Source: an uncultured Rhodobacteraceae bacterium
GTDB taxonomy: Bacteria > Pseudomonadota > Alphaproteobacteria > Rhodobacterales > Rhodobacteraceae
NCBI GenBank assembly: GCA_937927675.1
Contig: CALBSG010000005.1
Location: forward strand, 21,727-85,726
Length of the DNA: 64,000 nucleotides
Direction: 5' to 3'
Position 1 is the stretch's first letter; every line of letters begins with the position of its first letter. The notes below the pieces were generated by a model. The model was not told where the DNA came from. It ran no database searches and saw only the letters and a list, made by a program, of their open reading frames with translations. This document shows, one piece after another, positions 42,280-58,740 of the stretch. The position numbers were made by a program, and so were the translations under genes.

Positions 42280-42280
42280 C

Positions 42281-43199: not shown

Positions 43200-44198
43200 T
43201 TAAAGCAGGCTGGCAAGCCGAACGGGCGCGCCGGTTTTGGCCGATTGGGTTGCGGCTTCGGCCATGGCCAAGGCGGCGACGCCATCGGCCAAGGTCACCG
43301 GCAAGGCGGAACCCGAATTGACGGCCTGCACAAAGGCCGCCCATTCTGCCGCATAGGCGGGCATGTAGCGTTCAAGGAAGAAATAGGTGGGCTTCGCACC
43401 GGTCACACCGGCCGTCGTCGATTTCACGACGGTATTTTCCAGCATGTTCTGCGCCTGCAAGAGCCCTTCCGAGCCCAAAAGCTCCAGTCGCTGGTCATAG
43501 CCGTAGACCGCGCGGCGCGAATTCTTGATGACCGCGATGCGCCCGTCGGCATAGGTCAGCGTCACCACGGCAGTATCCACATCGCCCGCCGCCCCGATCT
43601 CTGGATCGACGATGGAGGTGCCGACAGCTGACACCGTAACGGGGGCCGCGCCCATGATGAAATTGGCCATGTCAAAGTCGTGGATCATCATGTCGCGGAA
43701 CAGACCACCCGACACCTTGATATAGGCGACCGGCGGCGGCGCGGGGTCGAAAGAGGTGATCGACAGAAGCTCGGTCTTGCCAATCTCGCCTTTGTCGGCG
43801 GCGGCTTTCAGGGCGGCAAAGTTCGGGTCAAACCGGCGGTTGAAGCCGATCATCACAGGTTTGCCGTTCTGCGCGACGGCCTTTTGGCAGGCTTGCGCAC
43901 GGGCCAGCGACAGATCCACCGGCTTTTCGCACAGCACCGCCTTGCCCGCCGCCGTTGCCCGTTCGATCAGGTCGGAATGGGTGTCGGTCGAGGTGGCGAT
44001 CAGGACCGCGTCAATCGTGGGGTCGGACAGGATAGCGTCGGTGGCCCGCGCTTCGGCCCCGTATTGCGCGGCAAGTTTGGCAGCCGCTTCGGTGTTGATG
44101 TCACTGACCGCAACAAGGCGCGATCCGGGGTTGGTGGAAATGGCGGTGGCATGCACGCCCGCAATGCGGCCTGCGCCAAGAAGTCCGACGTTCAGCAT
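43200..44198 (-). CDS. Gfo/Idh/MocA family dehydrogenase (inositol 2-dehydrogenase-like)
   Basis: 332 aa. 'VGLLGAGRIAGVHA' Rossmann fold, 'VLCEKPV' and 'GFNRRFDP' family motifs. Confidence 0.85.
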   Translation of the reverse strand: MLNVGLLGAGRIAGVHATAISTNPGSRLVAVSDINTEAAAKLAAQYGAEARATDAILSDPTIDAVLIATSTDTHSDLIERATAAGKAVLCEKPVDLSLARAQACQKAVAQNGKPVMIGFNRRFDPNFAALKAAADKGEIGKTELLSITSFDPAPPPVAYIKVSGGLFRDMMIHDFDMANFIMGAAPVTVSAVGTSIVDPEIGAAGDVDTAVVTLTYADGRIAVIKNSRRAVYGYDQRLELLGSEGLLQAQNMLENTVVKSTTAGVTGAKPTYFFLERYMPAYAAEWAAFVQAVNSGSALPVTLADGVAALAMAEAATQSAKTGAPVRLASLL

Positions 44199-44212
44199 GG
44201 GTCTGATCCTGA

Positions 44213-45022
44213 TTATTGGCCGAGAGCGGCCTTGAAGGTGGAAAATTCATCATCGCTCATCGCGACGTTGTGGCGAGGTTCGGGATAGGCGGCGCTGTCA
44301 ACATCGCTGCGGAATTCGCGGAAGGCGGCGATGCGTTCGGCCTGCAACCGGGCGAATTCGGCGGCGAAATTGCGATAGGTCTTGGCATGGCGCGGTTTGT
44401 GGCCATCGGTGCAGCCCAGCACATCTTCGGCAAACAGATATTGCGCATCGGCACCGGGGCCAGCCCCCATGCCCAACATCAGCATCGGAGTATTGGCACT
44501 GATGAAGGCACCCAATTGGTCCGGCACACATTCCAATTCGGCCCCGAAGGCGCCGATGGCTTCCAGCGTTTTGACATGGTCCCAGACCACGCGGGCCTCG
44601 GTCGCGGTTTTGCCGACAGCGCGCCATCCAGTCCAGGTGATGTAACTGGGGATCAACCCGACATGGGCCACGATCGGCACATGGTTGTCACAAAGGGTCT
44701 TCTGGATGTCGAGCGACGCCGCGCAGTAAAAGCAGTCGCCCCCCATGGCCGTAAAGTGAAAGGCGGCGCGCAGGTAATCTTCGGCGGTCGCCAGCTTGCC
44801 GTAAGGACCATAGGGCAGACCGACCTGCACAAAGCAGTTGCCAGCCGCCTCACGCATTTCTGGGCTGAAAAAGCGCCCCTCAATCGACAGCATATGAATG
44901 CCCGCCGCATCGGCCGCCGCCGCTTCGTCCAGCGTGGTGACGTAAAGCATCGAAATCTTTTGCCCGCGCGCCTTCATGGCGCGCATATCATGGACAGAGG
45001 GGCGAGCGTTCTTGTGGACCAT
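44213..45022 (-). CDS. PanB-like (3-methyl-2-oxobutanoate hydroxymethyltransferase family) enzyme, copy A
   Basis: 269 aa. 'HVGLIPSYITWTGWRAVGKT', 'ELECVP' and 'GMGAGPGADAQYLF' parallel the PanB active-site regions. Embedded in a catabolic operon, not a pan operon. Confidence 0.75.
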   Translation of the reverse strand: MVHKNARPSVHDMRAMKARGQKISMLYVTTLDEAAAADAAGIHMLSIEGRFFSPEMREAAGNCFVQVGLPYGPYGKLATAEDYLRAAFHFTAMGGDCFYCAASLDIQKTLCDNHVPIVAHVGLIPSYITWTGWRAVGKTATEARVVWDHVKTLEAIGAFGAELECVPDQLGAFISANTPMLMLGMGAGPGADAQYLFAEDVLGCTDGHKPRHAKTYRNFAAEFARLQAERIAAFREFRSDVDSAAYPEPRHNVAMSDDEFSTFKAALGQ

Positions 45023-45024
45023 GA

Positions 45025-45798
45025 TTACACCGTGAAGGCCGTGCGGAAGGCTTCAAGGGCAGCCTCCTCATCGCCCTTGGCGAAGGCTTCCATGCCGACG
45101 GGGCCGCTGTAGCCCATGCCCTTCAAGGCGCGGGCAACGCCGGCATAGTTGATCTCGCCGGTTCCCGGTTCGCAGCGACCGGGGTTGTCCGCAACCTGCA
45201 CTTCGCCGATCCACGGCAGGCAGGCCTCGGTCCAGCGGATCAGGTCACCCTCGCCGATCTGGGTGTGGTAAAGGTCCAGATTGATGCGCAACTCGGGCCG
45301 GTTCACCGACGATACCAACGCCAACACATCGGCGGTCGCACCAAAGGGGCAGCCGGGATGGTCGATCGGGTTCAGGTTTTCCAGCGTGAATTGAACACCC
45401 TCCGACGCAGCCAGATCGCAAATCCGGTGCAGGGTATCGCGGGCGCGGGTCACCATGCCGGGGGCAAATGACCCGATCTGCGGGATCGGCACGCCCATGT
45501 CGCCCAACCCCGTGCCATGCAGATTCAGCCGCTGCACGCCCAGACGCTTGCCGACCTGAACCGTCTCACGCGCCGAGGCGAGCAGCATGTCGGCCCCTTC
45601 GGCATCGGTCAGGCGACCCTGAAGATAGCCGTTCATGATGGTAAAGGTTGCCCCGGTCTTCACCAGCGCATCCACATCCCAAGCGGGCCAGTTCCACAGG
45701 CCAACGCCAAAGCCCATTTCTTTCAGGCGCGCGGCGCGCCAATCCATTGGGCGGTCGCGCCACAGCATTTCGGCGCAGGCGGCAAGTTGAAAGCTCAT
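45025..45798 (-). CDS. Hydroxypyruvate-isomerase-like TIM-barrel protein
   Basis: 257 aa from the ATG at 45798 (MSFQLAACAEMLW). 'LNLHGTG', 'FTLENLN', 'INLDLYHTQI', 'GEVQVAD' are xylose-isomerase-fold metal motifs. Confidence 0.8.
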   Translation of the reverse strand: MSFQLAACAEMLWRDRPMDWRAARLKEMGFGVGLWNWPAWDVDALVKTGATFTIMNGYLQGRLTDAEGADMLLASARETVQVGKRLGVQRLNLHGTGLGDMGVPIPQIGSFAPGMVTRARDTLHRICDLAASEGVQFTLENLNPIDHPGCPFGATADVLALVSSVNRPELRINLDLYHTQIGEGDLIRWTEACLPWIGEVQVADNPGRCEPGTGEINYAGVARALKGMGYSGPVGMEAFAKGDEEAALEAFRTAFTV

Positions 45799-45799
45799 G

Positions 45800-46111
45800 T
45801 CAGATCTCGATGTAAACCGCACCGTCTTCCACTTTTACGGGAAAGGTGCGGAGGTTGACGCAGGCGGGCGCGCGTTTGGCCTCGCCGGTTTTGTAGCAGA
45901 AGGTGGCGTTGTGCTTGGGACATTCGACAGTGCCGTCCATCACGAGACCATCGCAGAGATGCACCTTTTCATGGCTGCAAATGCCGTCCATGGCGTGGAA
46001 GGTGTCATCCTCTGAGCGTACGATGATGAAGGTCTGGCTCCCGTGGTCAAAGCGGATCAGGTCATCCAGTTCGATGTCGTCCGGGGCGCAGGCGCGTATC
46101 CAGTTGGGCAT
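45800..46111 (-). CDS. Rieske [2Fe-2S] ferredoxin (MocE-like), copy A
   Basis: 103 aa. 'CSHEKVHLCDG...ECPKHN' = CxH...CxxH Rieske ligands. ~60% identical by eye to the 57630 copy. Confidence 0.88.
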   Translation of the reverse strand: MPNWIRACAPDDIELDDLIRFDHGSQTFIIVRSEDDTFHAMDGICSHEKVHLCDGLVMDGTVECPKHNATFCYKTGEAKRAPACVNLRTFPVKVEDGAVYIEI

Positions 46112-46125
46112 GGGTATCAGGTCCG

Positions 46126-46944
46126 TTATGCAGCAGGGGGAGGCGGGTGGCCGTTGTGGCTGGCCATGTACCCTTCGATTTCGGCTTCAAGGCTGGCCAT
46201 CGAGGCACCGCCCGCCATCAGGTCGGTGATCTCTTCGCGGGTCTTTTCGCCCTTTTTGAAATCCGCCGCGACGGCGCCGCGGATCAACACGGCAAAATGG
46301 TCGCCCACCGCCATGGCATGCATCACCTGATGGGTGATGAAGATCACAGCCAGACCCCGGCGCTTGGCCTCGTTCACGATGCGCAAAACGTGTGTCGCCT
46401 GTTTGACGCCCAAAGCGGCCGTCGGTTCATCCAAAATCAGCACCCGCGCCCCGAAATGCACCGCGCGGGCAATGGCGAGCGATTGCCGCTCCCCGCCTGA
46501 CAGCCCGCCGACCAGACGGTCGCCGTCGGTGATCCGGGTAATGCCCATGTCCTGCACGGCCTTTACCGCAATCGCATTGGCGCGTTTCCGGTCATAGACC
46601 CGGAACGGCCCCCAGCCCTTGGTCGGCTCAACGCCGACGAAAAAGCTGCGCCCGATGGACATCAGGGGAAAGGTGCCGCCGAACTGGTGAACGGTGGAGA
46701 TGCCTGCCTCGGCCGCCACGCGGGGCGTGGGGAAGCTGACGGGTTGGCCATCCATCTCGATCACGCCGCTGGAAGGCTGATGCACCCCCGACATGATCTT
46801 GATGAGGGTCGATTTCCCCGCGCCATTGTCACCCAGAAGGCAGAGCACTTCGCCGGGCTTCACCTCCAAGGTGATGTCATGCAGCACATCAATCGGACCA
46901 AAGGATTTGTTCACACCCCGCAGGGCCAGGATCGGGGCGGTCAT
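46126..46944 (-). CDS. Sugar-type ABC transporter ATPase (single ABC domain)
   Basis: Walker A 'GDNGAGKST', signature 'LSGGERQS', Walker B 'VLILDEPTAAL'. Confidence 0.9.
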   Translation of the reverse strand: MTAPILALRGVNKSFGPIDVLHDITLEVKPGEVLCLLGDNGAGKSTLIKIMSGVHQPSSGVIEMDGQPVSFPTPRVAAEAGISTVHQFGGTFPLMSIGRSFFVGVEPTKGWGPFRVYDRKRANAIAVKAVQDMGITRITDGDRLVGGLSGGERQSLAIARAVHFGARVLILDEPTAALGVKQATHVLRIVNEAKRRGLAVIFITHQVMHAMAVGDHFAVLIRGAVAADFKKGEKTREEITDLMAGGASMASLEAEIEGYMASHNGHPPPPAA

Positions 46945-47951
46945 GCTTTGGCGCCTTTCTTCTTGGTTGTGGCCGACAGCGCCATCTTGCGGAAGGTGTT
47001 GTTCATCAAAACGGCACCCAACAGCAGGACACCGATGATGAGCGAGGACCAGTTCCGATCAAAATCGGTGTAGTAGATGCCTTGGGTCACGATGGCGAAG
47101 GTGATGGTGCCAAAGAAGATGCCGACAACCGACCCAAAACCCCCTGTCAGCAAGACCCCCCCGACCACGACCGAGATGATGGCGTTGAAGATGAACGATT
47201 GCCCACCGGCAACCTGGGCCGAGTTGTAAAGGATCGCCTGCGACATGCCGACAAAAGCAGCAGAGGTGGCCGACAAGACGAACAGGATGATGGTCAGCCG
47301 GTCCGTCGGAATTCCGGCATTGCGCGCCGAAACCTTGTCGCCGCCCATGGCAAAAATCCAGTTTCCGAAGGGCGAGAAGTGGACAAAGAAGATGTAAAGC
47401 GCAGTCAGTCCCAGCCACCACAGGGCCATGACCTGCAACTGCCCCCCAAAGAGGAAATCGCCGAACATCGCCTTGGCCGGGCCTTCCACACTCAACGCGA
47501 CAGAGGTGGATTTGGTGATAAGGACCGTCAGGCCCAGCACGACACCTTGCACCGCAAACAGGCTGCCCAGCGTCACGATCAGCGAGGGAACGGCGGTTTT
47601 CACCACAAGGATGCCATTCACCAGCCCAACGATCACACCAAAGGACAGGGCCATCGCGACGCCCAGCCAGATCGGCATATCGTAATGGCCCGAGACCACA
47701 GCGACGGTCATCGCGCCAAAGGGCACCATGGCACCCACGGAAATATCAAGTTCGCCGGCAATCATCAAAAGACCCAGCGGGATAGCGATCACCCCCAAGT
47801 TCGCCGCGACATTCAGCCAGCTGGCCATGCCTGCGGGTTTCAGAAAGGTAACCCCGCCGAAGAAGGCGAAGAAGATCAGGACGGCAATCAGGCCAAGGGC
47901 GGCCCCGGCTTCGGGGCGGCGCAAGAGGCCACCTAAGGAAGTGCTGGACAT
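46941..47951 (-). CDS. Sugar-type ABC transporter permease (RbsC/FrcC-like)
   Basis: 336 aa with ~9-10 TM segments. Stop overlaps the ATPase start. Confidence 0.88.
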   Translation of the reverse strand: MSSTSLGGLLRRPEAGAALGLIAVLIFFAFFGGVTFLKPAGMASWLNVAANLGVIAIPLGLLMIAGELDISVGAMVPFGAMTVAVVSGHYDMPIWLGVAMALSFGVIVGLVNGILVVKTAVPSLIVTLGSLFAVQGVVLGLTVLITKSTSVALSVEGPAKAMFGDFLFGGQLQVMALWWLGLTALYIFFVHFSPFGNWIFAMGGDKVSARNAGIPTDRLTIILFVLSATSAAFVGMSQAILYNSAQVAGGQSFIFNAIISVVVGGVLLTGGFGSVVGIFFGTITFAIVTQGIYYTDFDRNWSSLIIGVLLLGAVLMNNTFRKMALSATTKKKGAKA

Positions 47952-47975
47952 GGGTCAGCCCCGTATCATGTGAGG

Positions 47976-48010
47976 AAAAAAGGAGGGGACCAGCGGCAAA
48001 GCCGGTCCCC
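47976..48010 (-). terminator. Intercistronic hairpin/attenuator after the SBP gene
   Basis: On the minus strand: GGGGACC-ggctttgccgct-GGTCCCC followed by TCCTTTTTTCC. Confidence 0.6.
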
Positions 48011-48018
48011 GATCAGGT

Positions 48019-48990
48019 TTAGCGCGCGCCGAGCTTTACGCCCGCAAGCGTGGCGTCGATGTTGGACGCATCTACGATCCCCGGGCCCGTCAGGACCGGG
48101 AAGACCGGCAAGTCGGTGCCAAAGTCGATGCTCGAGGCCAGAAGGCTGACGGCAAGATAGGATTGCAGATAGGGCTGCTGGTCGATGGCAAAGGCTTGGG
48201 TGCCCGCCTTGATCCGATCAAGCCCAGCCTGGTTCATGTCGAACGACCCCAGTTTCGTCGCCCCGGTCTTGCCAGCCTGCTCGACGGCAATCGCGGCGCT
48301 GTCGGCGTCGCCTGCCGAGATGGTGATGACACCGTCAATGGTCTCATCTTTCAGCAGTTCCGCCTTGATCGCTTCGGCCACGGCCGTCGCATCGCCGAAA
48401 GAGGTCGACGGCAGCGGCAGTTGCGCGCCCTTGCCACCCTTGCCGGTGACGCCATCGATCACGCCTTTGCAGCGCGCTTCGATGTTGGCGGTGCCGGGCA
48501 GGGTGTTGATGCACAACACGTTCTTTTGGCCAGCGCCGGCGAAATATTCGCCGCCCGCAACACCGGCGACATATTCATCCGAGCCGACATAGTTGATGGC
48601 GCCCAGTTCAGTGGCTTTGTCCGCGCCGCCTGCGTTCATCAAGATCACCTTGATGCCGGCCGCCATCGCGTCTTTGATCGCCGGATCTTCCGCCTCGGGC
48701 ACCCAGTTCGGGATCACCAGACCGTCAACTTCCATGGAAATGGCGGTGCGGATCAGCTGCACAACGTCGGGCGCGAAGTTGTCGTAGTTTACCAGACGCA
48801 GATAAGTCACAGTGCCGCCATTGGCCTCGACCGCCGGGGTGGCATCGTCGATGCCCTTCTTGATGATGTTCCAAAAGGCGTCATCGTTCGACCCGCCGAC
48901 CACCGCGATATCTGCCGCCATTGCGGCCGAACCTGCGGCGACCAGTGCTGTCGTTGCCAGTGCTTTGGCCATGGATTTCAGAAATGCCAT
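48019..48990 (-). CDS. Periplasmic sugar/polyol-binding protein (RbsB/MocB-like), module A
   Basis: ATG at 48990 after GGGAGGA. Signal 'ALVAAGSAAMA/ADI'. Periplasmic binding protein type I pattern. Confidence 0.85.
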   Translation of the reverse strand: MAFLKSMAKALATTALVAAGSAAMAADIAVVGGSNDDAFWNIIKKGIDDATPAVEANGGTVTYLRLVNYDNFAPDVVQLIRTAISMEVDGLVIPNWVPEAEDPAIKDAMAAGIKVILMNAGGADKATELGAINYVGSDEYVAGVAGGEYFAGAGQKNVLCINTLPGTANIEARCKGVIDGVTGKGGKGAQLPLPSTSFGDATAVAEAIKAELLKDETIDGVITISAGDADSAAIAVEQAGKTGATKLGSFDMNQAGLDRIKAGTQAFAIDQQPYLQSYLAVSLLASSIDFGTDLPVFPVLTGPGIVDASNIDATLAGVKLGAR

Positions 48991-49091
48991 TCGTCGTTTC
49001 CTCCCTTGGTCCGCCTCTCCCGGCGGGTTGTTGAACTTTGGTCTTCCCCTCCGCCCGGCCTCCTCTGCCGTGCGAAGGGCGATCGTTTGCG

Positions 49092-50105
49092 TCAAGCGCT
49101 GGATTTTGCGTTCATCCGGGCTTTCTTCTTTTCAAAACGCGCATTCATCCGCGCGTCGCCTTCTTTCGAGCCATCGTGCCAGTAGCCGAACCACTTATCC
49201 AAAGGGATCAACCCGTCGCCGCCGTAGTTCACCTCGAAGTATTTGTGATGCAGGTAGTGGGCGTAGGCATGGCTATCGAGCGTGCGGTCCTCGGTCAGTT
49301 CCAGCTTGTCAAAACCGATGTGCCCATTCACCGCGCCAAATCCTGCAAGGTGCAGCTGGAACATCGCCACAATCGGGTTTGACGGGATCACAAGGTGCCA
49401 AAGCGCTACGGCGTGATAGAGGAACCCTTCCACCGGATGCATCGAAAGCGACGACCACGGCGATGGGTTGACCGAGTTGTGGTGGACCGAATGGATCCAC
49501 TTATAGAGGATCGGCACATGGATCAGCCGGTGGATCAGGAAGAAATGCACCTCATGGATGGCCGGGCAAAGCAGCGTCAGCACAACCAGCCACAGCCAAT
49601 TGTCCGACCATGAAAGCCACGGCACATAACCCGAGGCAAAAGCATGCAGAAAGATCACCTGCACCAGCGTCCACAGCGGGATCGAGATGAAGAAAGATCG
49701 CAGGAAGTTGTCGATGTTCTGGCTTTTGAACCAGAACACGTCAGATGGCTGCTCGGCCGGGAATTTCCCGTTGTATTTGAACCGCGAGCCCTGCTTTTTC
49801 TTCACATACCAGAACAGTTCAATTGCGCCGTAAAAGACAAAGATCGCTGCGGCATTGACTGCGTATAGCCACAGCGCCCAGCCCCAGCTCAGGGTTTTCA
49901 GAACCTCGACATCGGGAACCACATAGGCCCACCACAGAAGCGCTGTTGCCATGTGAAAGGCGTTCCACGGCCAGAGATATTCCGGAATCCATGCCAGAAC
50001 CTTGGGCAGGCTCAACGGTTTTTGCCAAAACGGCGGCAGGGACAGATGGGCAAACGGGGCCCAGTCACCGCGCTTGTTGCGGGTTCCGAACTTGAGATCA
50101 TCCAT
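49092..50105 (-). CDS. Fatty-acid-hydroxylase/sterol-desaturase superfamily membrane di-iron oxygenase
   Basis: ATG at 50105 after AGGAGG. His boxes 'HEVHFFLIHRLIH', 'HSVHH', 'HYLHHKY'. Several TM segments. Confidence 0.85.
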   Translation of the reverse strand: MDDLKFGTRNKRGDWAPFAHLSLPPFWQKPLSLPKVLAWIPEYLWPWNAFHMATALLWWAYVVPDVEVLKTLSWGWALWLYAVNAAAIFVFYGAIELFWYVKKKQGSRFKYNGKFPAEQPSDVFWFKSQNIDNFLRSFFISIPLWTLVQVIFLHAFASGYVPWLSWSDNWLWLVVLTLLCPAIHEVHFFLIHRLIHVPILYKWIHSVHHNSVNPSPWSSLSMHPVEGFLYHAVALWHLVIPSNPIVAMFQLHLAGFGAVNGHIGFDKLELTEDRTLDSHAYAHYLHHKYFEVNYGGDGLIPLDKWFGYWHDGSKEGDARMNARFEKKKARMNAKSSA

Positions 50106-50377
50106 CTGCGCCTCCTGTGTTTCACCGTCCACGGGGCAGAAAGACACCGGCACCTACGGGCCACACCCGCAGATACCGCCCCCCCCCGCGCGGGAGCCGC
50201 CTTTTGCCTGTTGGACGTCTGTTGCTGTGGGCAGGAGGTCAAACTCCGATCCTGCCGCGATGTCTGCAGATAAGCGCCTTGACGCAGATCAAATCAAGCG
50301 CCCATGATAGCGTAAACATGAATTCGTCTCATTCGTATCAGTATTGGTTCTGAATGATATGAAAAGGATCAAATCGC

Positions 50378-51400
50378 ATGCACCGCCCCACCATCCCCGA
50401 CCTTGCCAAAACCGCAGGCGTCTCGGTCGCCACTGTAAACCGCGTCCTGTCCGGGGCGGCCAATGTCCGGCTGGCAACGCGAGAGCGGGTTCAAAAGGCG
50501 GCCGAGGAAATCGGTTTTTACGGCGTGGGCAGCATCCAAGCCCGCGTTGCGGCGGCCCGTCCGCGCCTACGCTTTGGGGTCTTGTTGCTGCAACCCCATC
50601 GCCCCTTTTATCAAAACGTCGCGCAGGCGTTGGAAGACGCCGCCGCCAATGCCGTGGGGGCTGACATTGATCTGCGCGTTGAATTTCTTGAAGATCTCTC
50701 GCCCCAGAATGTGGCCAACCGTGCCCTTGATCTGGCGGAAACCTGCAATGCCATCTGCGTGACCTCTGCCGTGCACCCGGTCGTCACCGAAGCACTGGAG
50801 CAAATTCAGGCACGGGGGATTCCGGTGTTCGCCCTGATCTCGCAGATTTCGGTGACGGGGCAGATGTCTTACGTCGGCCTCGACAACTGGAAAGTCGGCC
50901 GCACCTCCGGCTGGGCCTTTGCACACATCTGCAAGAAACCGGGCAAGATCGGCATCCTGATGGGCAACCCGCGCTATCGGAATCAGGAAATGAACGAGAC
51001 AGGCTTTCGGTCATTCTTCCGCGAATGCGCGCCGGATTTCACCCTGCTGGAACCGATCACCACCTTCGAATCAGCCGCCGTTGCGCAGGAGTTGACGGAA
51101 AAGCTGCTGGCCGAGCACCCCGACCTTGCCGGACTTTACATCTCGGGCGGTGGCATCAGCGGGGCGCTTGCCGCACTGCGCGCCACAGGAAGGGCCGGGT
51201 CGCTGGTGGTGGTCGGCTATGATTTGACCGACGTCACCCGTGCCGCCCTGCTGGACGGCACGATGACGCTGCTGCTGTCGCACCCGCTGGCACGGCTTGC
51301 CCGCGACGCGATTGATGGAATGATTCGCGCCTGCGGTAACCCGAGCAGCAATCAAACCAGCATCGCCCCGTTTGAAATCTACACCCGCGAAAACATCTGA
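50378..51400 (+). CDS. LacI family transcriptional regulator (module A)
   Basis: N-terminal HTH 'TIPDLAKTAGVSVATVNRVLSG' plus a periplasmic-binding-fold effector domain. Confidence 0.9.
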   Translation: MHRPTIPDLAKTAGVSVATVNRVLSGAANVRLATRERVQKAAEEIGFYGVGSIQARVAAARPRLRFGVLLLQPHRPFYQNVAQALEDAAANAVGADIDLRVEFLEDLSPQNVANRALDLAETCNAICVTSAVHPVVTEALEQIQARGIPVFALISQISVTGQMSYVGLDNWKVGRTSGWAFAHICKKPGKIGILMGNPRYRNQEMNETGFRSFFRECAPDFTLLEPITTFESAAVAQELTEKLLAEHPDLAGLYISGGGISGALAALRATGRAGSLVVVGYDLTDVTRAALLDGTMTLLLSHPLARLARDAIDGMIRACGNPSSNQTSIAPFEIYTRENI

Positions 51401-51413
51401 CGCGCCGCCTATT

Positions 51414-52178
51414 TCACGCGGCCGCCTCAGCATTTCCTTTGACGCCGGTGATATAGCTGACGATGTCATTTCCGTCGGTTTCGTCCTTGCGCAAGGAGGC
51501 GACGATGCGGCCGCGGCGGAAGACGACGATGCGGTCCACGAGGTCGAAGACCTGCCGCAGGTTATGGCTGATGAGGATCATCGGGATGCCGCGGTCTTTC
51601 AGGCCGCGGATGATGTTTTCCACCTGCGCGGTTTCCTGCACGCCCAAGGCCGCCGTCGGTTCGTCCATGATGACCAGTTTCGAGGCAAAGGCCGCCGTCC
51701 GCGCGATGGACACGCATTGCCGTTGGCCTCCGCTCATGTTGCGGATCGGGTTGTCGACGTTGGGGATCTTCACCGCCGTGGTCTTCAACGCCTCCAGCGT
51801 GCGGTCGCGCATCGCCTTGCGGTCCAGCCAGGAAAACGGACCAAGGCGGAACTTGAAGAGCTCGCGGCCCAAAAACAGGTTCGACGGCACATCCAGATCA
51901 TCGGCCAAGGCCAGCGTCTGGAACACCGTCTCGATGCCCGCCTCGCGCGCCTCGAGCGGCCCTGCGAAGTTGACCGGCTGGCCGTCGAAAAACACCTCCC
52001 CGGCCGAGCGCTGCTCCACTGCCGTCACCTGCCGCACAAAGGTCGATTTGCCCGCGCCATTGTCGCCCACAACGGCCACATGCTCGCCCTCATGCAGGAT
52101 GAAATTGGCATCCTCCAGCGCATGCACCCCGCCATAGCGTTTGGTCAGCCCGCGCGTTTCCAGAATGATCTTGCTCAT
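51414..52178 (-). CDS. Sugar-type ABC transporter ATPase (single ABC domain), module B
   Basis: Walker A 'GDNGAGKST', signature 'MSGGQRQ', Walker B 'LVIMDEPTAAL'. Start at 52178 (MSKIILE). Confidence 0.9.
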   Translation of the reverse strand: MSKIILETRGLTKRYGGVHALEDANFILHEGEHVAVVGDNGAGKSTFVRQVTAVEQRSAGEVFFDGQPVNFAGPLEAREAGIETVFQTLALADDLDVPSNLFLGRELFKFRLGPFSWLDRKAMRDRTLEALKTTAVKIPNVDNPIRNMSGGQRQCVSIARTAAFASKLVIMDEPTAALGVQETAQVENIIRGLKDRGIPMILISHNLRQVFDLVDRIVVFRRGRIVASLRKDETDGNDIVSYITGVKGNAEAAA

Positions 52179-52183
52179 GGCCG

Positions 52184-53296
52184 TTACCCCCGCGCCCGCT
52201 TGCCTTGCCGCCACTGGTCCAAGACGACCGCGCCGACGATGATCACGCCCTTCACCATCTCTTGGTAATAGGCGTCGAGTTGGATCGAGGTGAACCCCGA
52301 GATGATGACCGAAAAAATCATCGCCCCGAGAACCGTGCCAAGGATCGAGCCACGCCCGCCGGTCAGCGACACCCCGCCGATCACCGCCATGGCGATGGCG
52401 TCGAGTTCATACATCATCCCCATACCTGCCTGCGCGGTCAGGTTTTTGGAGGTGAGCAGCACCGCCGATACCCCGGCCAAGAGGCCCGCGATGCTATAGA
52501 CCAGCACCTTGTGACGGTCGGTGTTGATCCCCGACATCCGCGCCGCCGCCTCGTTCGAGCCGATGGCATAGGTGCGCTTGCCGTACAGCGTGAAGCTCAT
52601 CAGCACCCAAAAGAGCAGCGCCAACAGGATGAACACCACCGCCGGGTTCTGGCCCTTCCAGCTGAGCAGGCCAAAGCTCAGGCTGCCCAGCACATCGCCA
52701 TTCGACAGCGCGCCATAGCTTTCTGTCGGGAAGCTGACCGGCTGGCCATTCGACCACCAGCGCGAGGCGCCGCGCGCCGCCACCATCATGCCCAGCGTGG
52801 CAATGAAGGGCGGGATGCGGGTGTAGGCGATCAGCAATCCATTGATAAGGCCAGCAAACGCCCCGCAGGCAAGGCCGATGACGATCGGCACCAGCACCGG
52901 CAGATCCATCGCCCAGGCCCCAAAGATCGCCTTGGGGTTGGGGTTGCCATTCACCAGCGCAGTTTGTGCAAAGCTCATCGCCACCATCGCCGTGACGCCC
53001 ACAACCGAGCCAGACGACAGATCAATCCCACCGATGATGATGACCTGCGTCACCCCCAGCGCGATAATGCCCACGATGGCGACCTGCAGCATCATGATGT
53101 CCAGCCGCTGCATGTTGAACAGGCTGTCCACCCCGTCGCGCATGTTGAACAAAAACGACCCGCCCTGCAGACGGTTCAACCCCTCAAAGACCACAACCAT
53201 GATCACCAGCGCCAAAAACACATTCCACTCCGGCGCCCGCGCGCGACGCGCAGGATCATACTTCAGACCTCCAAGGCCATGTGCTTCTTGTGACAT
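52184..53296 (-). CDS. Sugar-type ABC transporter permease, module B
   Basis: 370 aa from the ATG at 53296; multiple TM segments. Confidence 0.88.
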   Translation of the reverse strand: MSQEAHGLGGLKYDPARRARAPEWNVFLALVIMVVVFEGLNRLQGGSFLFNMRDGVDSLFNMQRLDIMMLQVAIVGIIALGVTQVIIIGGIDLSSGSVVGVTAMVAMSFAQTALVNGNPNPKAIFGAWAMDLPVLVPIVIGLACGAFAGLINGLLIAYTRIPPFIATLGMMVAARGASRWWSNGQPVSFPTESYGALSNGDVLGSLSFGLLSWKGQNPAVVFILLALLFWVLMSFTLYGKRTYAIGSNEAAARMSGINTDRHKVLVYSIAGLLAGVSAVLLTSKNLTAQAGMGMMYELDAIAMAVIGGVSLTGGRGSILGTVLGAMIFSVIISGFTSIQLDAYYQEMVKGVIIVGAVVLDQWRQGKRARG

Positions 53297-53321
53297 CCGC
53301 TTGCCTTCACCCAAATCGACC

Positions 53322-53350
53322 AAAAGGCCCGGCCATGGGAGAGGCCGGGC
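53322..53350 (-). terminator. Intercistronic hairpin/attenuator after the SBP gene
   Basis: On the minus strand: GCCCGGCC-tctcccat-GGCCGGGC followed by TTTTGG. Confidence 0.6.
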
Positions 53351-53389
53351 AAGGGGGCGGCAGCACCGCCCGGATGACTGATCTTCAGA

Positions 53390-54331
53390 TCAGTTCTTGG
53401 CCAGATAGTCTGCGACGTTGGCCGGGGTGACAAGTTCGAACGGCACATAGACCTTTTGATCCACCGCCTCGCCTGCAGCGAGTTTGGTCGCCGCATCCAG
53501 CGCGCCCGACCCTTGCGCGGCCGCGTTCTGGAACACCGTCACATCCAGATCGCCTGCCTGCATGGCGGCAAGCGCGTCTTGCGTCGCATCCACACCGCCG
53601 ACCTGAACGGTGGCCATGTCGATGTTCGCAGCCTTCATCGCCTGAATGGCACCGATCGCCATTTCGTCGTTATTGGCAATCACACCGTCAAAGGCTTTGC
53701 CGGTCGACAGCCAGTTGGTCATCAAGGTCTGAGCCTGATCGCGGCTCCAGTTGGCGGTCTGTTGGTCGATCACGTTGACTTTGACCTTGCACTTGCCGGC
53801 CTCGATCACGTCATAGATGTCTTGGGTCCGCTGCACAGCGGCTTGGTTGGAAAGCTCGCCCTGCATGACAAAGACGTTGACGTCGGTCTTGCCCTCAGCC
53901 GCCCAGTTGTCGCACATCTGAATGGTTTCCAGCGTGCCAGATTCCACTTCATTCGAAGCAACGAAGGCCTGATTGTCGGGCAGCGTATCAACATTCACCG
54001 GCTGGCGGTTGACATAGACCAGCGGGATATTGGCAGCAGCCGCGGCATCCGACATGGCTTGGGTCGCGCTGGTGTCAACCGGGTTGACGATGATCGCCGT
54101 AACACCCGAGGCGATGAAATTGTTGATCTGATCCAATTGCTTGGCCACATCGTTCTGTGCGTCTTCAATCTGCACTTTCAACCCGCCGGCATCGGCCTGA
54201 GCCTGAATGCCGTTGCGCAGAACCGTCAGGAAGTTGTCGTCAAACAGCGCCATCGACACGCCAATGCCGTCGGCCATCGCGGTGGTGGTCATCAGTGCGG
54301 AAAAGCCCGCAACCAGAAGTGCCTTTTTCAT
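53390..54331 (-). CDS. Periplasmic sugar/polyol-binding protein, module B
   Basis: ATG at 54331 after GGGAGAG. Signal 'LMTTTAMA/DGI'. RbsB-like fold pattern. Confidence 0.85.
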   Translation of the reverse strand: MKKALLVAGFSALMTTTAMADGIGVSMALFDDNFLTVLRNGIQAQADAGGLKVQIEDAQNDVAKQLDQINNFIASGVTAIIVNPVDTSATQAMSDAAAAANIPLVYVNRQPVNVDTLPDNQAFVASNEVESGTLETIQMCDNWAAEGKTDVNVFVMQGELSNQAAVQRTQDIYDVIEAGKCKVKVNVIDQQTANWSRDQAQTLMTNWLSTGKAFDGVIANNDEMAIGAIQAMKAANIDMATVQVGGVDATQDALAAMQAGDLDVTVFQNAAAQGSGALDAATKLAAGEAVDQKVYVPFELVTPANVADYLAKN

Positions 54332-54410
54332 GTCTCTCTCCCTTGTTGGATGCCGGCTCATCCGTTCTGTTGGCCGGGGGCTCTCTCCCAGAGCCCGCAT
54401 CACACACAGA

Positions 54411-55229
54411 TCAGGCGGCCTTGCGGGCCAACCCGTCGCGGATGAATTGCATAGAGGCGGCAAGCTGCGCCTTGGGGTCGGCAAAGCCGTGAACCTGCGG
54501 CGCAAACGCCTCGAAGCTGACGGGGCCGTTCCAGCCAAGCCCTTGAAGATCGGCAATCTGCGCGATGTTGCCCAGCCGGTCGCCTTCGGTCACCAGAACA
54601 CGGTGGGCGTCCTGCATCTCGGCAACACTGACGCCGGGATCGGTGACACCCGAGATGTGAACGATGCCGGTATGGTCGGGGAAATACGGCCCCCCATGCG
54701 CCAGCGTGTGGTGGAACGTGTCATGCACCAGCTTAAAGCGCCCCTTGGCGCCCAGCGCCTCGATGGCCTCGACCGCTTCGGCTTTGTAGCGCAACGCACA
54801 GATTTCAAAGCCCAAAGGTTCGACCATGCCGATCAGACCGTGATCTTCCAGCATCGGGCTCAGGGCCTTCAGGGCCACCCGCAGGGCCGCCTGTCGTTCG
54901 CCATTGCCCATGCCAAGATTGTCATTGCGGGGGATCAGACTGACGGCCTCGGCACCGGCGGCTTTGGCGATCTTCATCAGCGCCAGCGCCTCGGCGGCCT
55001 TATCATCGGACCAGTCGTTGAAGCGCTTTACCTCGGCCACGGCCAACAGACGCAAGCCTTTGGCGCGGATCATCTCGCCTGCCGTGACCGGGTCCAACCC
55101 GTCAAACAGCGGTTGCGGCAGGTCGTTACGGACCTCGATCCCGACGCAGCCCAGATCCGCTGCAAGAGCGACAAGCTCGGCAAAGCCAAGCCGCGCCACC
55201 GTCATGTGGTTGAGTGCAAACTGGACCAT
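54411..55229 (-). CDS. IolI-like TIM-barrel inosose isomerase / sugar phosphate isomerase-epimerase
   Basis: 272 aa from the ATG at 55229 after GGGAGG. 'GIEVRND', 'MVEPLGF', 'LVHDTFHH', 'VSFEAF' metal-site pattern. Confidence 0.75.
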   Translation of the reverse strand: MVQFALNHMTVARLGFAELVALAADLGCVGIEVRNDLPQPLFDGLDPVTAGEMIRAKGLRLLAVAEVKRFNDWSDDKAAEALALMKIAKAAGAEAVSLIPRNDNLGMGNGERQAALRVALKALSPMLEDHGLIGMVEPLGFEICALRYKAEAVEAIEALGAKGRFKLVHDTFHHTLAHGGPYFPDHTGIVHISGVTDPGVSVAEMQDAHRVLVTEGDRLGNIAQIADLQGLGWNGPVSFEAFAPQVHGFADPKAQLAASMQFIRDGLARKAA

Positions 55230-55357
55230 GTGAAACCTCCCGAGCCGTGTTGCCATTGCGGTCGGACCCTGCGGCGGCGGGGTGATTCCGTCAATTGCAG
55301 GGCGCGGCTTTTCGTCACAGATGACGAAATAGCGCAGGAAGTTTTGATGGCTTTACG

Positions 55358-56395
55358 TCAAACTGACTCGGGCAAATAGAGATCGGGGGGCAGGAAATGC
55401 TGCCCCTGAACCGACGTGATACCCTGTGCGACGGCCTCGGCCGAAAGGGTCACCAGATCAGCGCAAAGCCGTGGCAGCGGGGTGGCGATGGCCATGGTGA
55501 CATAGCGTGAAATCAGCGCGGCCCGGCTTTCCGGCGTCAATTCGTTGACCACCAAGGCCACCTCACCGGGTGGGCGCGCCTCGCGGAGAGCGGCAATCGC
55601 CCCCTCCATCCCACCACCCGCGCAGTAGATCCCGCGTAAATCTTTGTGACGGTTTAATAAATCTAGCGTCGCCTCATAGGTCAATTGCCGGGTTTCCAAG
55701 TTTACCAGCGTATCCAGCACCTGAAATTGCGGGCCGTGTTCGCGAAAGTAGCTGCGGACCCCGGTTTCGCGTAATTCGTGCCCATGCCAGCGATAGCCGC
55801 CGACAAAAATCGCAATCTTCCCAGCATGATGCGTAGCGGTTGCGATCATATGGGCAGCAATCCGACCAACTTTCAGATTGTTCAAACCAAGATAGTTTTG
55901 CCGCACACCCTGACCAAAGTCGTTCAGCAAGGCAAAGACCGGAATTCCCTTGGCATTCAAACGAATAACGGCCTCCGTGACCTCGGGATGCGTCACCGCC
56001 GTGGCCGCAATTGCATCGACACGGCCCACCAAAGCCTCCATCTGCGCAACAAAATCGCCGGGGCTTTGCGATGGCGCAAAGACCACCGTGACGCTGGCCC
56101 GGACACCGCTGGCCTGAGCCACCGCACGCTCAATCTCGGTTTTGAAATTCTGGTAAAACGCCTGCTTTTCCTTGTGCAGAACGACCCCCAATCGCAGGCG
56201 CGGCAGATCGGCCTGCATGCGTTGGCCAATCAGTGAGGCAGCGTGATAGCCAATCGCCCTTGCCGCCTCATAGACCTTGCGCGCCGTTTCCTCGCGCACC
56301 GCTTCGCGGCCGTTCAGCACCCGATCAACGGTGGCCGTCGAAAGCCCCGCCGCGCGGGCGACATCTTGAATGGTGGGTCTGCCTGCCATCTTCAT
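55358..56395 (-). CDS. LacI family transcriptional regulator (module B)
   Basis: HTH 'TIQDVARAAGLSTATVDRVLNG'. Start chosen at 56395 (MKMAGRP). Confidence 0.9.
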   Translation of the reverse strand: MKMAGRPTIQDVARAAGLSTATVDRVLNGREAVREETARKVYEAARAIGYHAASLIGQRMQADLPRLRLGVVLHKEKQAFYQNFKTEIERAVAQASGVRASVTVVFAPSQSPGDFVAQMEALVGRVDAIAATAVTHPEVTEAVIRLNAKGIPVFALLNDFGQGVRQNYLGLNNLKVGRIAAHMIATATHHAGKIAIFVGGYRWHGHELRETGVRSYFREHGPQFQVLDTLVNLETRQLTYEATLDLLNRHKDLRGIYCAGGGMEGAIAALREARPPGEVALVVNELTPESRAALISRYVTMAIATPLPRLCADLVTLSAEAVAQGITSVQGQHFLPPDLYLPESV

Positions 56396-56534
56396 TCCTG
56401 ACGAAAAAACATCAATACACGCCTTCATCGTGACGATTTTTGATGCGTTCTGCAAGCTCCCCTCTTTGTAACCAGAGCAAGCTGTGGCTATCGACAGAAA
56501 AGGCCCGATGCGCCCCAGAACAAAGGAGACCCCC

Positions 56535-57626
56535 ATGGCCAAACGCGATTACAGCCCGTTCGGCGCCGATGCCCGGCAGGCAGTGGAAAGCGGCCTGACG
56601 GCGGCGGAATGGTATCATACCGAGGTGCCGCGCAAGGTGATGAAGGATCTGATGGCCCGGTCCGATAGCCCGGCCATTCGCGATACGATCCTGCTTTACG
56701 GGCTGATGATTGTTTTTGCCATCGGCGGGATTGCGACGTGGGGCAGCGTGTGGGCCGTACCCTTCTGGCTGGCGTACGGCGTGCTTTACGGTTCGGCCAG
56801 TGACTCGCGCTGGCATGAATGTAGCCACGGCACCGCCTTTCGCACGCCTTGGATGAACAATGCGGTCTATCAGATCGCCAGCTTCATGATCATGCGCAAT
56901 TCAGCCACCTGGCGCTGGAGCCATACGCGCCACCATTCAGAAACCTATTTCGTCGGTCGCGACCCCGAGATTGCGGTGATGCGACCGCCAGAATTGGCCA
57001 AGTTGATTCTGAATTTCTTTGGCGTGATCGACGTTCTGAAGTTCTTTCCGAACCTGATCCAGAACGCCCTTTTCGGACCGACGAAAACCGAGAAAACCTT
57101 TGTGCCACAGTCGGAATGGGGCAAGGTGCAGCGAGTCGCTCTGGTGCATCTGGCGATCTATCTGGCCACGATTGCCCTTGCCGTCTGGATGGGGTCGATC
57201 CTGCCCTTGATGGTGATCGGTCTGCCGCGGATGTTTGGGGCATGGCATCACATCATGACTGGGCTTTTGCAGCACGGCGGCCTTGCGGACAATGTCATCG
57301 ATCACCGGCTGAATTCGCGCACGGTCTACATGAACCCGATCAGCCGTTTCATTTATTGGAACATGAACTACCACGTTGAACATCACATGTTCCCGATGGT
57401 GCCATACCATGCGCTGCCGCGGCTGCATGAGGCGATCAAGGCCGATCTGCCAGCACCCAATCGCTCTATCGCCGAAGGCTTTGCCGAAATGTGGCCCGCG
57501 TTGAAGCATCAGCTCGCCTATGAGGACTATTTCCTCAAGCGCGCCTTGCCTGCCAGCGCCAAACCCTATCGCGAAGATTTCCACCACTATGTGCCGGGCA
57601 TGACGCCCCCGAAAGCTGCGGAGTAA
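56535..57626 (+). CDS. Fatty-acid-desaturase/AlkB-type membrane di-iron oxygenase (MocD-like)
   Basis: ATG at 56535 after AAAGGAG. His boxes 'HECSH', 'HTRHH', 'HVEHH'. TM segments. Confidence 0.85.
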   Translation: MAKRDYSPFGADARQAVESGLTAAEWYHTEVPRKVMKDLMARSDSPAIRDTILLYGLMIVFAIGGIATWGSVWAVPFWLAYGVLYGSASDSRWHECSHGTAFRTPWMNNAVYQIASFMIMRNSATWRWSHTRHHSETYFVGRDPEIAVMRPPELAKLILNFFGVIDVLKFFPNLIQNALFGPTKTEKTFVPQSEWGKVQRVALVHLAIYLATIALAVWMGSILPLMVIGLPRMFGAWHHIMTGLLQHGGLADNVIDHRLNSRTVYMNPISRFIYWNMNYHVEHHMFPMVPYHALPRLHEAIKADLPAPNRSIAEGFAEMWPALKHQLAYEDYFLKRALPASAKPYREDFHHYVPGMTPPKAAE

Positions 57627-57629
57627 GAC

Positions 57630-57941
57630 ATGCCCTGGATCGACGCCTGCGCCACCGATGACATCGACCCCGAAGACCTGATCCGCTTTGACCATGCGGA
57701 CCAGACCTTTGCGATCTATCACGCCCCCGATGGCACGTTTTACTGCACCGAAGGCATGTGCAGCCATGAAAACGTTCATCTGTGCGACGGGCTGGTGATG
57801 GATCACCTGATCGAATGCCCCAAGCACAATGGCCAGTTTGATTACCGCACGGGCGAGGCGATGCGTGCGCCGGTCTGCGTGAACCTGAAGACCTTCCCCG
57901 TAAAGGTTGACGGCGACCGCGTGTTCATCGAGGTGGCCTAA
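57630..57941 (+). CDS. Rieske [2Fe-2S] ferredoxin (MocE-like), copy B
   Basis: 103 aa. 'CSHENVHLCDG...ECPKHN'. Starts 3 nt after the oxygenase stop. Confidence 0.88.
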   Translation: MPWIDACATDDIDPEDLIRFDHADQTFAIYHAPDGTFYCTEGMCSHENVHLCDGLVMDHLIECPKHNGQFDYRTGEAMRAPVCVNLKTFPVKVDGDRVFIEVA

Positions 57942-57942
57942 G

Positions 57943-58740
57943 ATGGCACGGCTGACGGTCAAAGATCTTTTGGATCAACGCGGCAAGCACCAGTTTGCCA
58001 TGCTGCGAGTCGAAACCCTTGAGGAGGCCGAAGCCGCCGCCCGCGCCGGGGTAGAGCTTTTGTCGGTGCCGCCGACCATGGTCTATGATCGATGTTTCCG
58101 CGAGGTGGCCCCCGACGCCTTTATCTTCCCCGGTGACAATTTCTATGAAATCGGCACCACCGATGATTTTCTGCACTGGGCCTTTCCGCTCTATAAACAC
58201 GGAGCGGATGCGTTTTATTGCTCGGGCTCATTGGCGACGATCCGCGCGATGGCCGACCACGGGCTGCCAGTTTGCGGCCATGTCGGGCTGATCCCGTCGA
58301 AACGCACTTGGACAGGCGGGTTCAAGGCCGTGGGCAAGACGCTTGAAACGGCGCAACTGGTTTGGCAGCAGGTCAAGGCTGCGGAGCAGGCCGGCGCCTT
58401 TGCCGTCGAGATTGAGGTGGTGCCGCATTCGATCACCCAAGCCATCGCCGAGAAGACCAACCTTTTCCTGATCTCGATGGGGGCCGGGGCGGCGGGCCAT
58501 GCGCAGTATCTGTTCAGCGATGACGTACTGGGCCAGAACCGCGGCCGTGTCCCCCGCCACGCCAAGGTCTATGCCGATTTCGCGGCAGAACAAGACCGCC
58601 TGCAAACCCTGCGGATCGAGGCGATGGGCCGCTTTGCCCGCGATGTGCATCGGGGCGATTACCCTGCCCCGCAATACCTGGTGGATTGCGACAGCGAGGT
58701 TGTCCAAGCATTCCGTGATTGGCTGGACGGAACTGGCTGA
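57943..58740 (+). CDS. PanB-like enzyme, copy B
   Basis: 265 aa. The ATG at 57943 is 1 nt after the Rieske stop. 'HVGLIPSKRTWTGGFKAVGKT', 'EIEVVP', 'SMGAGAAGHAQYLF'. Confidence 0.75.
   Translation: MARLTVKDLLDQRGKHQFAMLRVETLEEAEAAARAGVELLSVPPTMVYDRCFREVAPDAFIFPGDNFYEIGTTDDFLHWAFPLYKHGADAFYCSGSLATIRAMADHGLPVCGHVGLIPSKRTWTGGFKAVGKTLETAQLVWQQVKAAEQAGAFAVEIEVVPHSITQAIAEKTNLFLISMGAGAAGHAQYLFSDDVLGQNRGRVPRHAKVYADFAAEQDRLQTLRIEAMGRFARDVHRGDYPAPQYLVDCDSEVVQAFRDWLDGTG

Follow-up and report, generated by a model that had tools for sequence, protein, structure and literature searches.

Introduction

The closest described counterpart of the locus treated here is the gene set mocCABRDEF for catabolism of the rhizopine 3-O-methyl-scyllo-inosamine in Sinorhizobium meliloti L5-30 and Rhizobium leguminosarum. 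Within this set, mocB and mocR are divergent (PMC6668481), and mocDEF were assigned to rhizopine catabolism genetically and modelled, according to Bahar (1998) as cited in PMC10107442, as a 'ferredoxin oxygenase complex'. In this study, we analyse a stretch of 64 kb from an uncultured Rhodobacteraceae bacterium (contig CALBSG010000005.1), which is termed the window in the following. At positions 43200-58740 it carries two adjacent gene modules, A and B, each encoding a LacI-type regulator, an ABC importer with a periplasmic substrate-binding protein (SBP), a membrane di-iron oxygenase, a Rieske ferredoxin, a TIM-barrel protein, and a homologue of ketopantoate hydroxymethyltransferase (PanB), designated PanB-like protein. 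We regard it as moderately probable that both modules would serve the LacI-repressed uptake and oxidative demethylation of O-methyl-inositols, i.e. pinitol, ononitol, and related ethers, with transfer of the one-carbon (C1) unit to tetrahydrofolate (THF). The observations behind this proposal are the gene content, the homology to MocB, MocD, and MocE, the membership of one protein in the IolG family, synteny, and the loss of PanB ligands; from these we infer the identity of the substrate, the hydroxylation of its methyl group, and the THF-related role of the PanB-like protein.

Three further groups of systems share parts of this design. The iol clusters, as on plasmid pP24_b of Phaeobacter inhibens P24, have the same family of SBP, permease, and single-domain ATPase, a TIM-barrel gene before iolG, IolG itself, and a divergent LacI gene; they differ in having no oxygenase, Rieske, or PanB-like genes, whereas the modules of the window have no iolC, iolD, iolE, or iolB. 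In the operons for sarcosine and dimethylglycine oxidases, purU and folD likewise stand beside the gene of a demethylating oxidase. These enzymes have the THF site within a flavoprotein and cleave an N-methyl bond, whereas in the modules the oxidant would be a membrane di-iron protein and a separate PanB homologue the presumed THF protein. The hydroxylases AlkB and XylM have in common with the oxygenases of the window the eight-histidine di-iron motif, attack on a terminal methyl group, and a small iron-sulfur electron donor; this donor is a rubredoxin or a fused ferredoxin-reductase in place of a Rieske-type ferredoxin, and the substrate is a hydrocarbon in place of the polar cyclitol proposed here.

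Comparison with rhizopine loci

Gene families were assigned by Pfam and NCBIfam profile scores against curated cutoffs. Genuine moc loci were identified via their regulator by tblastn searches of plasmids and the MocR equivalog model NF052281 (cutoff 650), which gives 739-765 bits in Rhizobium indicum (L088, 739), S. meliloti RCAM1115 (L090), and Phyllobacterium zundukense Tri-48 (L091); numbers of this kind denote comparison loci. The gene order around mocR in these three loci is the published one, mocC, mocA, mocB, mocR, mocD, mocE, mocF, and includes the divergent orientation of mocB and mocR. In comparison with L088, oxygenase B is 68% identical to MocD, Rieske ferredoxin B 63% identical to MocE, and SBP B 60% identical to MocB, taken as the SBP encoded divergently from mocR. 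PanB-like protein B shares 56% of its residues with the PanB-like protein encoded 3' of mocF, and Rieske ferredoxin A shares 58% with MocE. The similarity to MocD and MocE on which a preliminary description of this DNA had relied is significant, since the identities for module B amount to 68% and 63% and both Rieske ferredoxins pass the MocE family cutoff. A homology search with the module B oxygenase returned near-identical proteins only, none of them labelled MocD.

The same description had called both modules moc-like. This holds for the MocD- and MocE-type proteins and, by sequence identity, the MocB-like SBP of module B and for the MocE family in both modules, but not for the remainder of the moc set. 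Neither module encodes MocR, both regulators belonging to the LacI family by Pfam. Neither TIM barrel matches the model of the IolE-like MocC, TIGR04379, for which the gene at the mocC position in L088 scores 395 against a cutoff of 290. The IolG protein of the window is just 29% identical to MocA of L088, tblastn searches with two MocF-type reductases as queries gave no match across the 64-kb window, and no aminotransferase or deaminating enzyme occurs among the genes of modules A and B. Module A departs further in using a PF04116 oxygenase for MocD and in including a true IolG. Because MocR, an IolE-like MocC, a MocA orthologue, MocF, and an aminotransferase are all missing, neither module is, judged by sequence, a rhizopine locus. 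That one or both might nevertheless be true loci for 3-O-methyl-scyllo-inosamine is very unlikely: the homologues of MocB, MocD, and MocE and the PanB-like gene common to moc loci would fit, but in addition to the differences just named the closest relatives belong to Tabrizicola, Rhodobacter, and Gemmobacter and are not nodule bacteria. What the modules would share with mocCABRDEF is the logic of importing a cyclitol ether, removing the methyl group, and feeding the product into the inositol pathway.

The model NF052284, which is named for a rhizopine SBP (cutoff 420), gives 38 bits for SBP B and at most about 45 bits for the SBPs encoded divergently from mocR (L088:7291-8220, L090:7890-8819, L091:7888-8817). 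Its scores are higher, at 138-158 bits, for another family of SBPs, represented by SBP A of the window and by L088:17499-18512. Apparently the model represents a protein other than the syntenic MocB, and it was dropped as a test for MocB, since syntenic MocB fails to match it.

The PanB-like protein

In L088, L090, and L091, which belong to three genera, a codirectional PanB-like gene and, after it, purU come next to the mocD-mocE-mocF genes on the 3' side; in L088, about 40 bp separate mocF from the PanB-like gene and about 10 bp the latter from purU. A PanB-like gene is likewise the last gene of the generic mocDE-like operons of R. etli p42e and S. meliloti pSymB. Neither this gene nor purU is mentioned in the descriptions of mocCABRDEF found in the literature searched. 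The PanB-like gene had initially been set apart as an addition to the moc scheme; its place directly 3' of mocF and before purU in three loci with MocR contradicts this view, and in the window, as in moc loci, the same gene follows the ferredoxin or reductase genes.

The PanB-like proteins of the window fall far below the PanB cutoffs, with 80-85 bits for TIGR00222 (cutoff 207.55) and about 105 bits for NF001452 (cutoff 272). In a profile comparison (hhalign, probability 99.5%), residues 52-252 of the PanB-like protein align with residues 68-262 of PanB only, i.e. with the C-terminal two-thirds of the PanB barrel (EC 2.1.2.11; E. coli structure 1m3u). The active site was surveyed in 86 members of the PanB-like family, using the numbering of E. 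coli PanB. D84 is replaced by G and K112 by Y in 86/86, E114 is replaced by A, S, or T, and the D45/S46 motif of PanB has no alignable counterpart. Conversely, H136, E181, Q211, D217, and the glycine loops including GxGAG are invariant across the 86 proteins. PanB-like protein A follows this pattern (D84 to G, K112 to Y, E114 to A; H136 and E181 retained). Of the PanB active site, the family has thus retained one half, and the other, responsible for binding the α-keto acid, is gone; use of methylene-THF is presumed to be a common property. For the R. etli orthologue RHE_PE00443, 5/12 active-site residues were described as conserved, and this gene neither prevents the auxotrophy of a panB mutant nor complements it from a plasmid (PMC3082293). 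Apart from this complementation test, our literature search found nothing that characterises a PanB-like protein.

A function as ketopantoate hydroxymethyltransferase was rejected on the basis of the scores below cutoff, the loss of Mg and keto-acid ligands, and the failure of the R. etli orthologue to complement panB. For the same reasons, taking the annotations of the modules at face value is hardly credible. According to this interpretation, which draws on the product names in public databases, pantothenate synthesis and the desaturation of lipids or sterols would be encoded by chance neighbours of sugar transporter genes; it is also contradicted by the conservation across orders of an operon that combines Rieske ferredoxin and importer genes. 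Tentatively, and with somewhat less confidence than for the demethylation proposal as a whole, we suggest that the PanB-like protein handles a folate C1 unit and makes no ketopantoate. This role is proposed because of the ligand loss in combination with the neighbouring purU and folD genes.

Distribution and gene neighbourhoods of the cassette

When 185,579 species genomes were scanned with a pattern, at least 552 confirmed PanB-like stretches were found. The neighbourhoods of the best 80 of these loci were mapped by tblastn, and 49 loci with full flanks (at least 8 kb on each side) were used for counting. The dominant order consists of a LacI gene divergent from an operon for PF04116 oxygenase, SBP, permease, ATPase, in some cases a second dehydrogenase, Rieske ferredoxin, TIM barrel, PanB-like protein, and IolG, with genes for a reductase, PurU, and FolD as occasional extras. 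The pairing of Rieske and PanB-like genes, which the preliminary description had proposed for a neighbourhood analysis, recurs at 45/49 loci. A di-iron oxygenase gene is equally frequent (45/49; 40 PF04116, 10 PF00487, 5 both), an importer of the SBP A type is found at 43/49, and a MocF-type reductase at 14/49. PurU or FolD is encoded at 7/49 loci, i.e. 14% compared to a chance rate roughly estimated at ~1% per 20-kb neighbourhood, and at all three moc loci (3/3), which amounts to a clear enrichment beside the cassette. An operon of Neotabrizicola shimadae illustrates the whole design, with the order SBP, permease, ATPase, MocE, TIM barrel, reductase, PanB-like protein, FolD, PurU, IolG.

The cassette is widespread in Rhodobacterales and Hyphomicrobiales, and among the matches listed there are outlier contigs labelled Chloroflexi, Actinomycetota, and Comamonadaceae; many of the listed carriers are aquatic or algae-associated Rhodobacterales. 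Public annotation names the cassette genes as pantothenate, sterol, or fatty-acid enzymes, and no characterisation of the oxygenase-ferredoxin-PanB-like cassette was found in our literature search. The oxygenase-ferredoxin core is already known as mocDEF, from genetics alone. What is new is the PanB-derived protein as constant partner, often together with PurU and FolD and also in genuine moc loci, the PF04116 oxygenase in the place of MocD in the commonest version of the cassette, and the breadth of the cassette across the two orders.

Many A-type cassettes contain, between the ATPase and Rieske genes, a second, distant dehydrogenase of the Gfo/Idh/MocA type (26-31% identical to IolG), which is absent from the window (loci with this gene include L012, L026, L035-L037, L045, L052, L068, L071, and L074). 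These loci often have a second permease or SBP as well, again without counterpart in the window. The extra dehydrogenase and transport genes might be the signature of cassettes that handle other isomers or inositols with two methyl groups.

Substrate and proposed pathway

A cyclitol is proposed as substrate because module A encodes IolG at equivalog level, the family of SBP A occurs in iol clusters, SBP B is MocB-like, and the gene set fits a pathway. Homologues of SBP A with 54-71% identity are encoded within the iol clusters of Phaeobacter inhibens (with iolG, iolC, and iolD) and Rhizobium beringeri (with iolD); the Phaeobacter cluster has, from annotation alone, a TIM-barrel gene directly before iolG. 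An earlier suggestion that both modules feed a substituted cyclitol into inositol catabolism is consistent with IolG, with the SBP A family, and with the likeness to MocB, MocD, and MocE, and we retain it as the best interpretation. Pinitol is 3-O-methyl-D-chiro-inositol and yields D-chiro-inositol on demethylation; IolG forms the 1-keto compound, which inosose isomerase converts to scyllo-inosose in the scheme known from B. subtilis. The importer, oxygenase system, IolG, and TIM-barrel isomerase of module A would match the needs of such a pathway.

The substrates might also be O-methylated sugars of plant or algal polysaccharides (methyl-hexoses or methyl-pentoses) that are oxidatively demethylated by the same logic. 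The highest scores of SBP B are those with the MglB and RbsB models and with galactose- or ribose-binding structures, the TIM barrels resemble ketose epimerases, and a P450-dependent demethylation of 6-O-methyl-galactose exists in marine bacteria. We consider methylated sugars unlikely in view of IolG being at equivalog level, the presence of the SBP A family in iol clusters, and the 60% identity of SBP B to MocB; moreover, neither module has genes for a sugar kinase or an aldolase.

For O-methyl-inositols, the following sequence of events is proposed. The substrate or a product would relieve LacI repression, the two modules being separately regulated, and an importer of the CUT2 type would bring in the methylated cyclitol. 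A di-iron monooxygenase, of the PF04116 type in module A and of the MocD-type PF00487 family in module B, would hydroxylate the methyl group, with electrons flowing from NAD(P)H via a MocF-type reductase encoded outside the window and the MocE-family Rieske ferredoxin to the oxygenase. The C1 unit, at the level of formaldehyde, would be transferred by the PanB-like protein to THF, giving 5,10-methylene-THF, which FolD and PurU would oxidise to formate; this fate is suggested because purU and folD adjoin the gene of a demethylating oxidase, as in the sarcosine oxidase operons. IolG would oxidise the freed inositol, and the TIM-barrel protein would isomerise the product to an inosose entering the iol pathway.

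An alternative that fits PanB chemistry starts from C-methyl or C-hydroxymethyl branched cyclitols, e.g. laminitol, mytilitol, or C7 cyclitols. Here, the C-methyl group would be hydroxylated, IolG would create the adjacent ketone, and the PanB-like protein would catalyse the reverse of the PanB reaction, a retro-aldol step by which the hydroxymethyl group would pass to THF. PanB forms or cleaves a C-C bond beside a ketone, PF04116 includes the sterol C4-methyl oxidases, the iolG gene adjoins the PanB-like gene, and the cassette is associated with folD and purU; the aquatic or algal habitat of many carriers would suit such substrates too. We rate this possibility as unlikely, since the same PanB-like gene occurs in genuine moc loci, although rhizopine is O-methylated and has no carbon branch, and since 86/86 PanB-like proteins have lost the Mg and keto-acid ligands with which PanB stabilises the enolate.

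Several points weigh against the demethylation of O-methyl-inositols as proposed here. Both modules are interpreted from their sequence alone, and the 64-kb window contains neither a reductase gene nor iolBCDE. PurU or FolD is present in just about 14% of the A-type loci, and SBP B falls into the MglB/RbsB group, which binds sugars too. The formaldehyde hemiacetal formed by methyl hydroxylation falls apart spontaneously, so that an enzyme capturing the C1 unit would be chemically dispensable. We know of no PanB homologue that serves in C1 capture and, to our knowledge, PF04116 enzymes do not otherwise have Rieske ferredoxins as partners. Circumstantial support for the proposal comes from the root exudate of Mimosa pudica, in which pinitol is the most concentrated component (145 µM). 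In Rhizobium mesoamericanum, this exudate induced iol genes, homologues of mocDEF, and an ABC operon of the mocB-like type; on the negative side, the induction of mocDEF was modest (1.5-2.1-fold), and the authors took it as rhizopine use (PMC5789663). As rhizopine is absent from the listed exudate components, pinitol seems the likelier inducer.

Origin of the two-module arrangement

The preliminary description had regarded the modules as paralogous and their arrangement as a duplication. The Rieske ferredoxins and the PanB-like proteins are indeed paralogs, with 65% and 41% identity between A and B, respectively. Otherwise homology extends only to the LacI regulators (39%), the ATPases (36%), and the permeases (28%), i.e. 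to five component types in total; TIM barrels, SBPs, and oxygenases show no significant A-B similarity in pairwise comparison, and each module is also found alone. Module A occurs by itself and in identical order between IS5 and IS110 transposase genes on plasmid p3 of Gemmobacter fulvus (L001), and the A-type cassette on a Neotabrizicola shimadae plasmid (L002) adjoins type IV secretion genes. Both plasmids are mobilizable, which suggests horizontal spread of A-type cassettes. In L092, whose MocD-type oxygenase is 95% identical, module B is located at the same site next to the rml genes without module A, the place of which is taken by genes for a FAD_binding_4/ALO-type oxidase (L092:3437-4708) and CbiMNQ with an ABC ATPase.

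A tandem duplication was ruled out by the A-B identity values and by L092. Because of the low or absent similarity, the solitary module A on a plasmid, and the locus without module A, the adjacency is to be read as a juxtaposition of separate modules. Since other genes occupy the corresponding position in L092, module A was recently gained or moved, perhaps along with the neighbouring nitrous-oxide reductase cluster. A- and B-type sets adjoin in other arrangements in L022, L067, and L080, and both oxygenase types are encoded within one cluster in L033, L043, and L079, which suggests that the two sets function together.

Genes and regulatory elements of the window

All 17 genes listed in the preliminary description are present at 43200-58740 with the Pfam families named there, and the histidine motifs of both oxygenases are legible in the translations (Table 1). 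The genes have coding-type codon bias with a third-position G+C content (GC3) of 0.72-0.83; several starts were refined inward relative to the longest open reading frames (ORFs). Module A (43200-51400) consists of a single minus-strand operon of eight genes, running from 50105 to 43200 with tight or overlapping junctions, plus the LacI gene, the divergent placement of which is conserved among the mapped loci. In L001, L005, and L010, orthologues 86-92% identical to its IolG are encoded at the corresponding place in the operon. Module B comprises a minus-strand operon (55229 to 51414) in the order TIM barrel, SBP, permease, ATPase, its own LacI gene, and, divergent from the latter, a plus-strand operon (56535-58740) in the order oxygenase, Rieske ferredoxin, PanB-like protein. 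Both oxygenases carry the three histidine boxes (HX3-4H, HX2-3HH, HX2-3HH) of the eight-histidine di-iron type. The best solved relative of SBP A is 4ru1. Barrel A, labelled 'Hyi-like' before, belongs to the AP_endonuc_2 family, its likeness to Hyi and OtnI being confined to the C-terminal half. Barrel B, designated IolI-like before, can be placed in the same family but no further: it has no NCBIfam match at 1e-5, and its solved relatives at E<0.01, 2q02 and 4hgx, are not functionally named. It is 51% identical to a TIM barrel encoded beside the mocDE-like operon of R. etli.

Table 1 Features of the window and of the three moc loci used for comparison
Feature	Position	Strand	Remarks
Nitrous-oxide reductase cluster: NosR-like (FMN_bind + Fer4_5), NosZ, NosD, NosF, NosY, ApbE-family gene	34055-43195		Directly upstream of module A
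IolG, inositol 2-dehydrogenase	43200-44198	-	Last operon gene; TIGR04380 equivalog, full length, 430 bits, cutoff 355
PanB-like protein A	44213-45022	-	PF02548, match limited to residues 59-248
TIM-barrel isomerase/epimerase A	45025-45798	-	AP_endonuc_2; Hyi/OtnI/ketose-3-epimerase-like; start refined
Rieske [2Fe-2S] ferredoxin A	45800-46111	-	103 aa; MocE family TIGR02377, 154 bits, cutoff 136
ABC ATPase A	46126-46944	-	PF00005; single domain
ABC permease A	46941-47951	-	PF02653 (BPD_transp_2)
SBP A, periplasmic	48019-48990	-	PF13407 (Peripla_BP_4); Shine-Dalgarno sequence and signal peptide at start
Membrane di-iron oxygenase A	49092-50105	-	First operon gene; PF04116 (FA_hydroxylase/sterol-desaturase); HEVHFFLIH, HSVHH, HYLHH
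LacI regulator A	50378-51400	+	PF00356 + PF13407; divergent from module A operon
ABC ATPase B	51414-52178	-	PF00005; start refined
ABC permease B	52184-53296	-	PF02653; start uncertain; L092 orthologue 345 aa
SBP B, MocB-like	53390-54331	-	PF13407; best solved relative 4yo7
TIM barrel B	54411-55229	-	First gene of importer operon; PF01261 (AP_endonuc_2)
Candidate LacI-B operator, perfect 20-bp palindrome TTTCGTCACAGATGACGAAA	55310-55329	.	54 bp upstream of operon for TIM barrel B and importer
LacI regulator B	55358-56389	-	PF00356 + PF13407; L092 orthologue 343 aa
MocD-type membrane di-iron oxygenase B	56535-57626	+	PF00487 (FA_desaturase/AlkB); HECSH, HTRHH, HVEHH; homologues 363 aa
Rieske ferredoxin B	57630-57941	+	MocE family TIGR02377, 162 bits, cutoff 136
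PanB-like protein B	57943-58740	+	PF02548
rmlC, rmlB, rmlD, rmlA	58923-62294		dTDP-rhamnose genes; directly downstream of module B
PanB-like gene + purU, 3' of mocF	L088:12753-14489		Rhizobium indicum
PanB-like gene + purU, 3' of mocF	L090:13346-15084		S. meliloti RCAM1115
PanB-like gene + purU, 3' of mocF	L091:13355-15096		Phyllobacterium zundukense Tri-48

A second match to TTTCGTCACAGATGACGAAA, with 3 mismatches, lies at 56387-56406 in the divergent region between the LacI B and oxygenase genes and overlaps the LacI B start. Two matches of this type were observed in the window compared to 0.11 expected, and no exact copy was present among 91 fetched loci. For the promoter region of module A, a search for inverted repeats gave a weak 12-nt pair only, and in a scan for σ70-type promoters the number of sites was not above that in shuffled controls. 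G+C-rich hairpins with T-rich tails follow both SBP genes within their operons (47985-48010 and 53327-53350, minus strand); they probably act in partial termination or in stabilising the RNA and thereby give more SBP than membrane components, an excess that is usual for importers of this kind. A terminator-like hairpin is located after the gene of PanB-like protein B (58760-58776).

The remainder of the window is filled by housekeeping genes, and we therefore assume a chromosomal setting; its nearest relatives are found among Paracoccaceae resembling Tabrizicola, Rhodobacter, and Gemmobacter. Two other plus-strand genes are an ORF of 606 aa at 14048-15868, with coding-type codon bias and no Pfam match at 1e-8, and a hybrid sensor kinase of 1374 aa at 23563-27687 with several PAS and GAF domains, a HATPase_c domain, and a receiver domain.

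Implications

In legumes, conifers, and their exudates, few soluble carbon compounds surpass pinitol, ononitol, and similar methyl-inositols in abundance, and our literature search found no description of a bacterial enzyme for the demethylation of methyl-inositols. The locus described here and hundreds like it provide a concrete candidate pathway for this reaction. In its widest form, which we put forward more tentatively than the folate-related role of the PanB-like protein alone, the proposal is that the PanB-like proteins constitute a new activity in the PanB/isocitrate-lyase superfamily, i.e. folate-dependent acceptors of the C1 unit from membrane di-iron O-demethylases, with two unrelated oxygenase families recruited independently to one and the same ferredoxin and C1 partner; the cassette would then be the missing, widespread bacterial route for demethylation of the abundant methyl-inositols of plants and algae, and the PanB-like protein an overlooked step of rhizopine catabolism. 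The comparison also flags a systematic misannotation, the cassette genes being publicly named pantothenate, sterol, and fatty-acid enzymes. Rhizopine catabolism has found use in engineered signalling between plants and microbes; for this pathway, the comparison suggests that the PanB-like gene and purU are two members that had escaped recognition.

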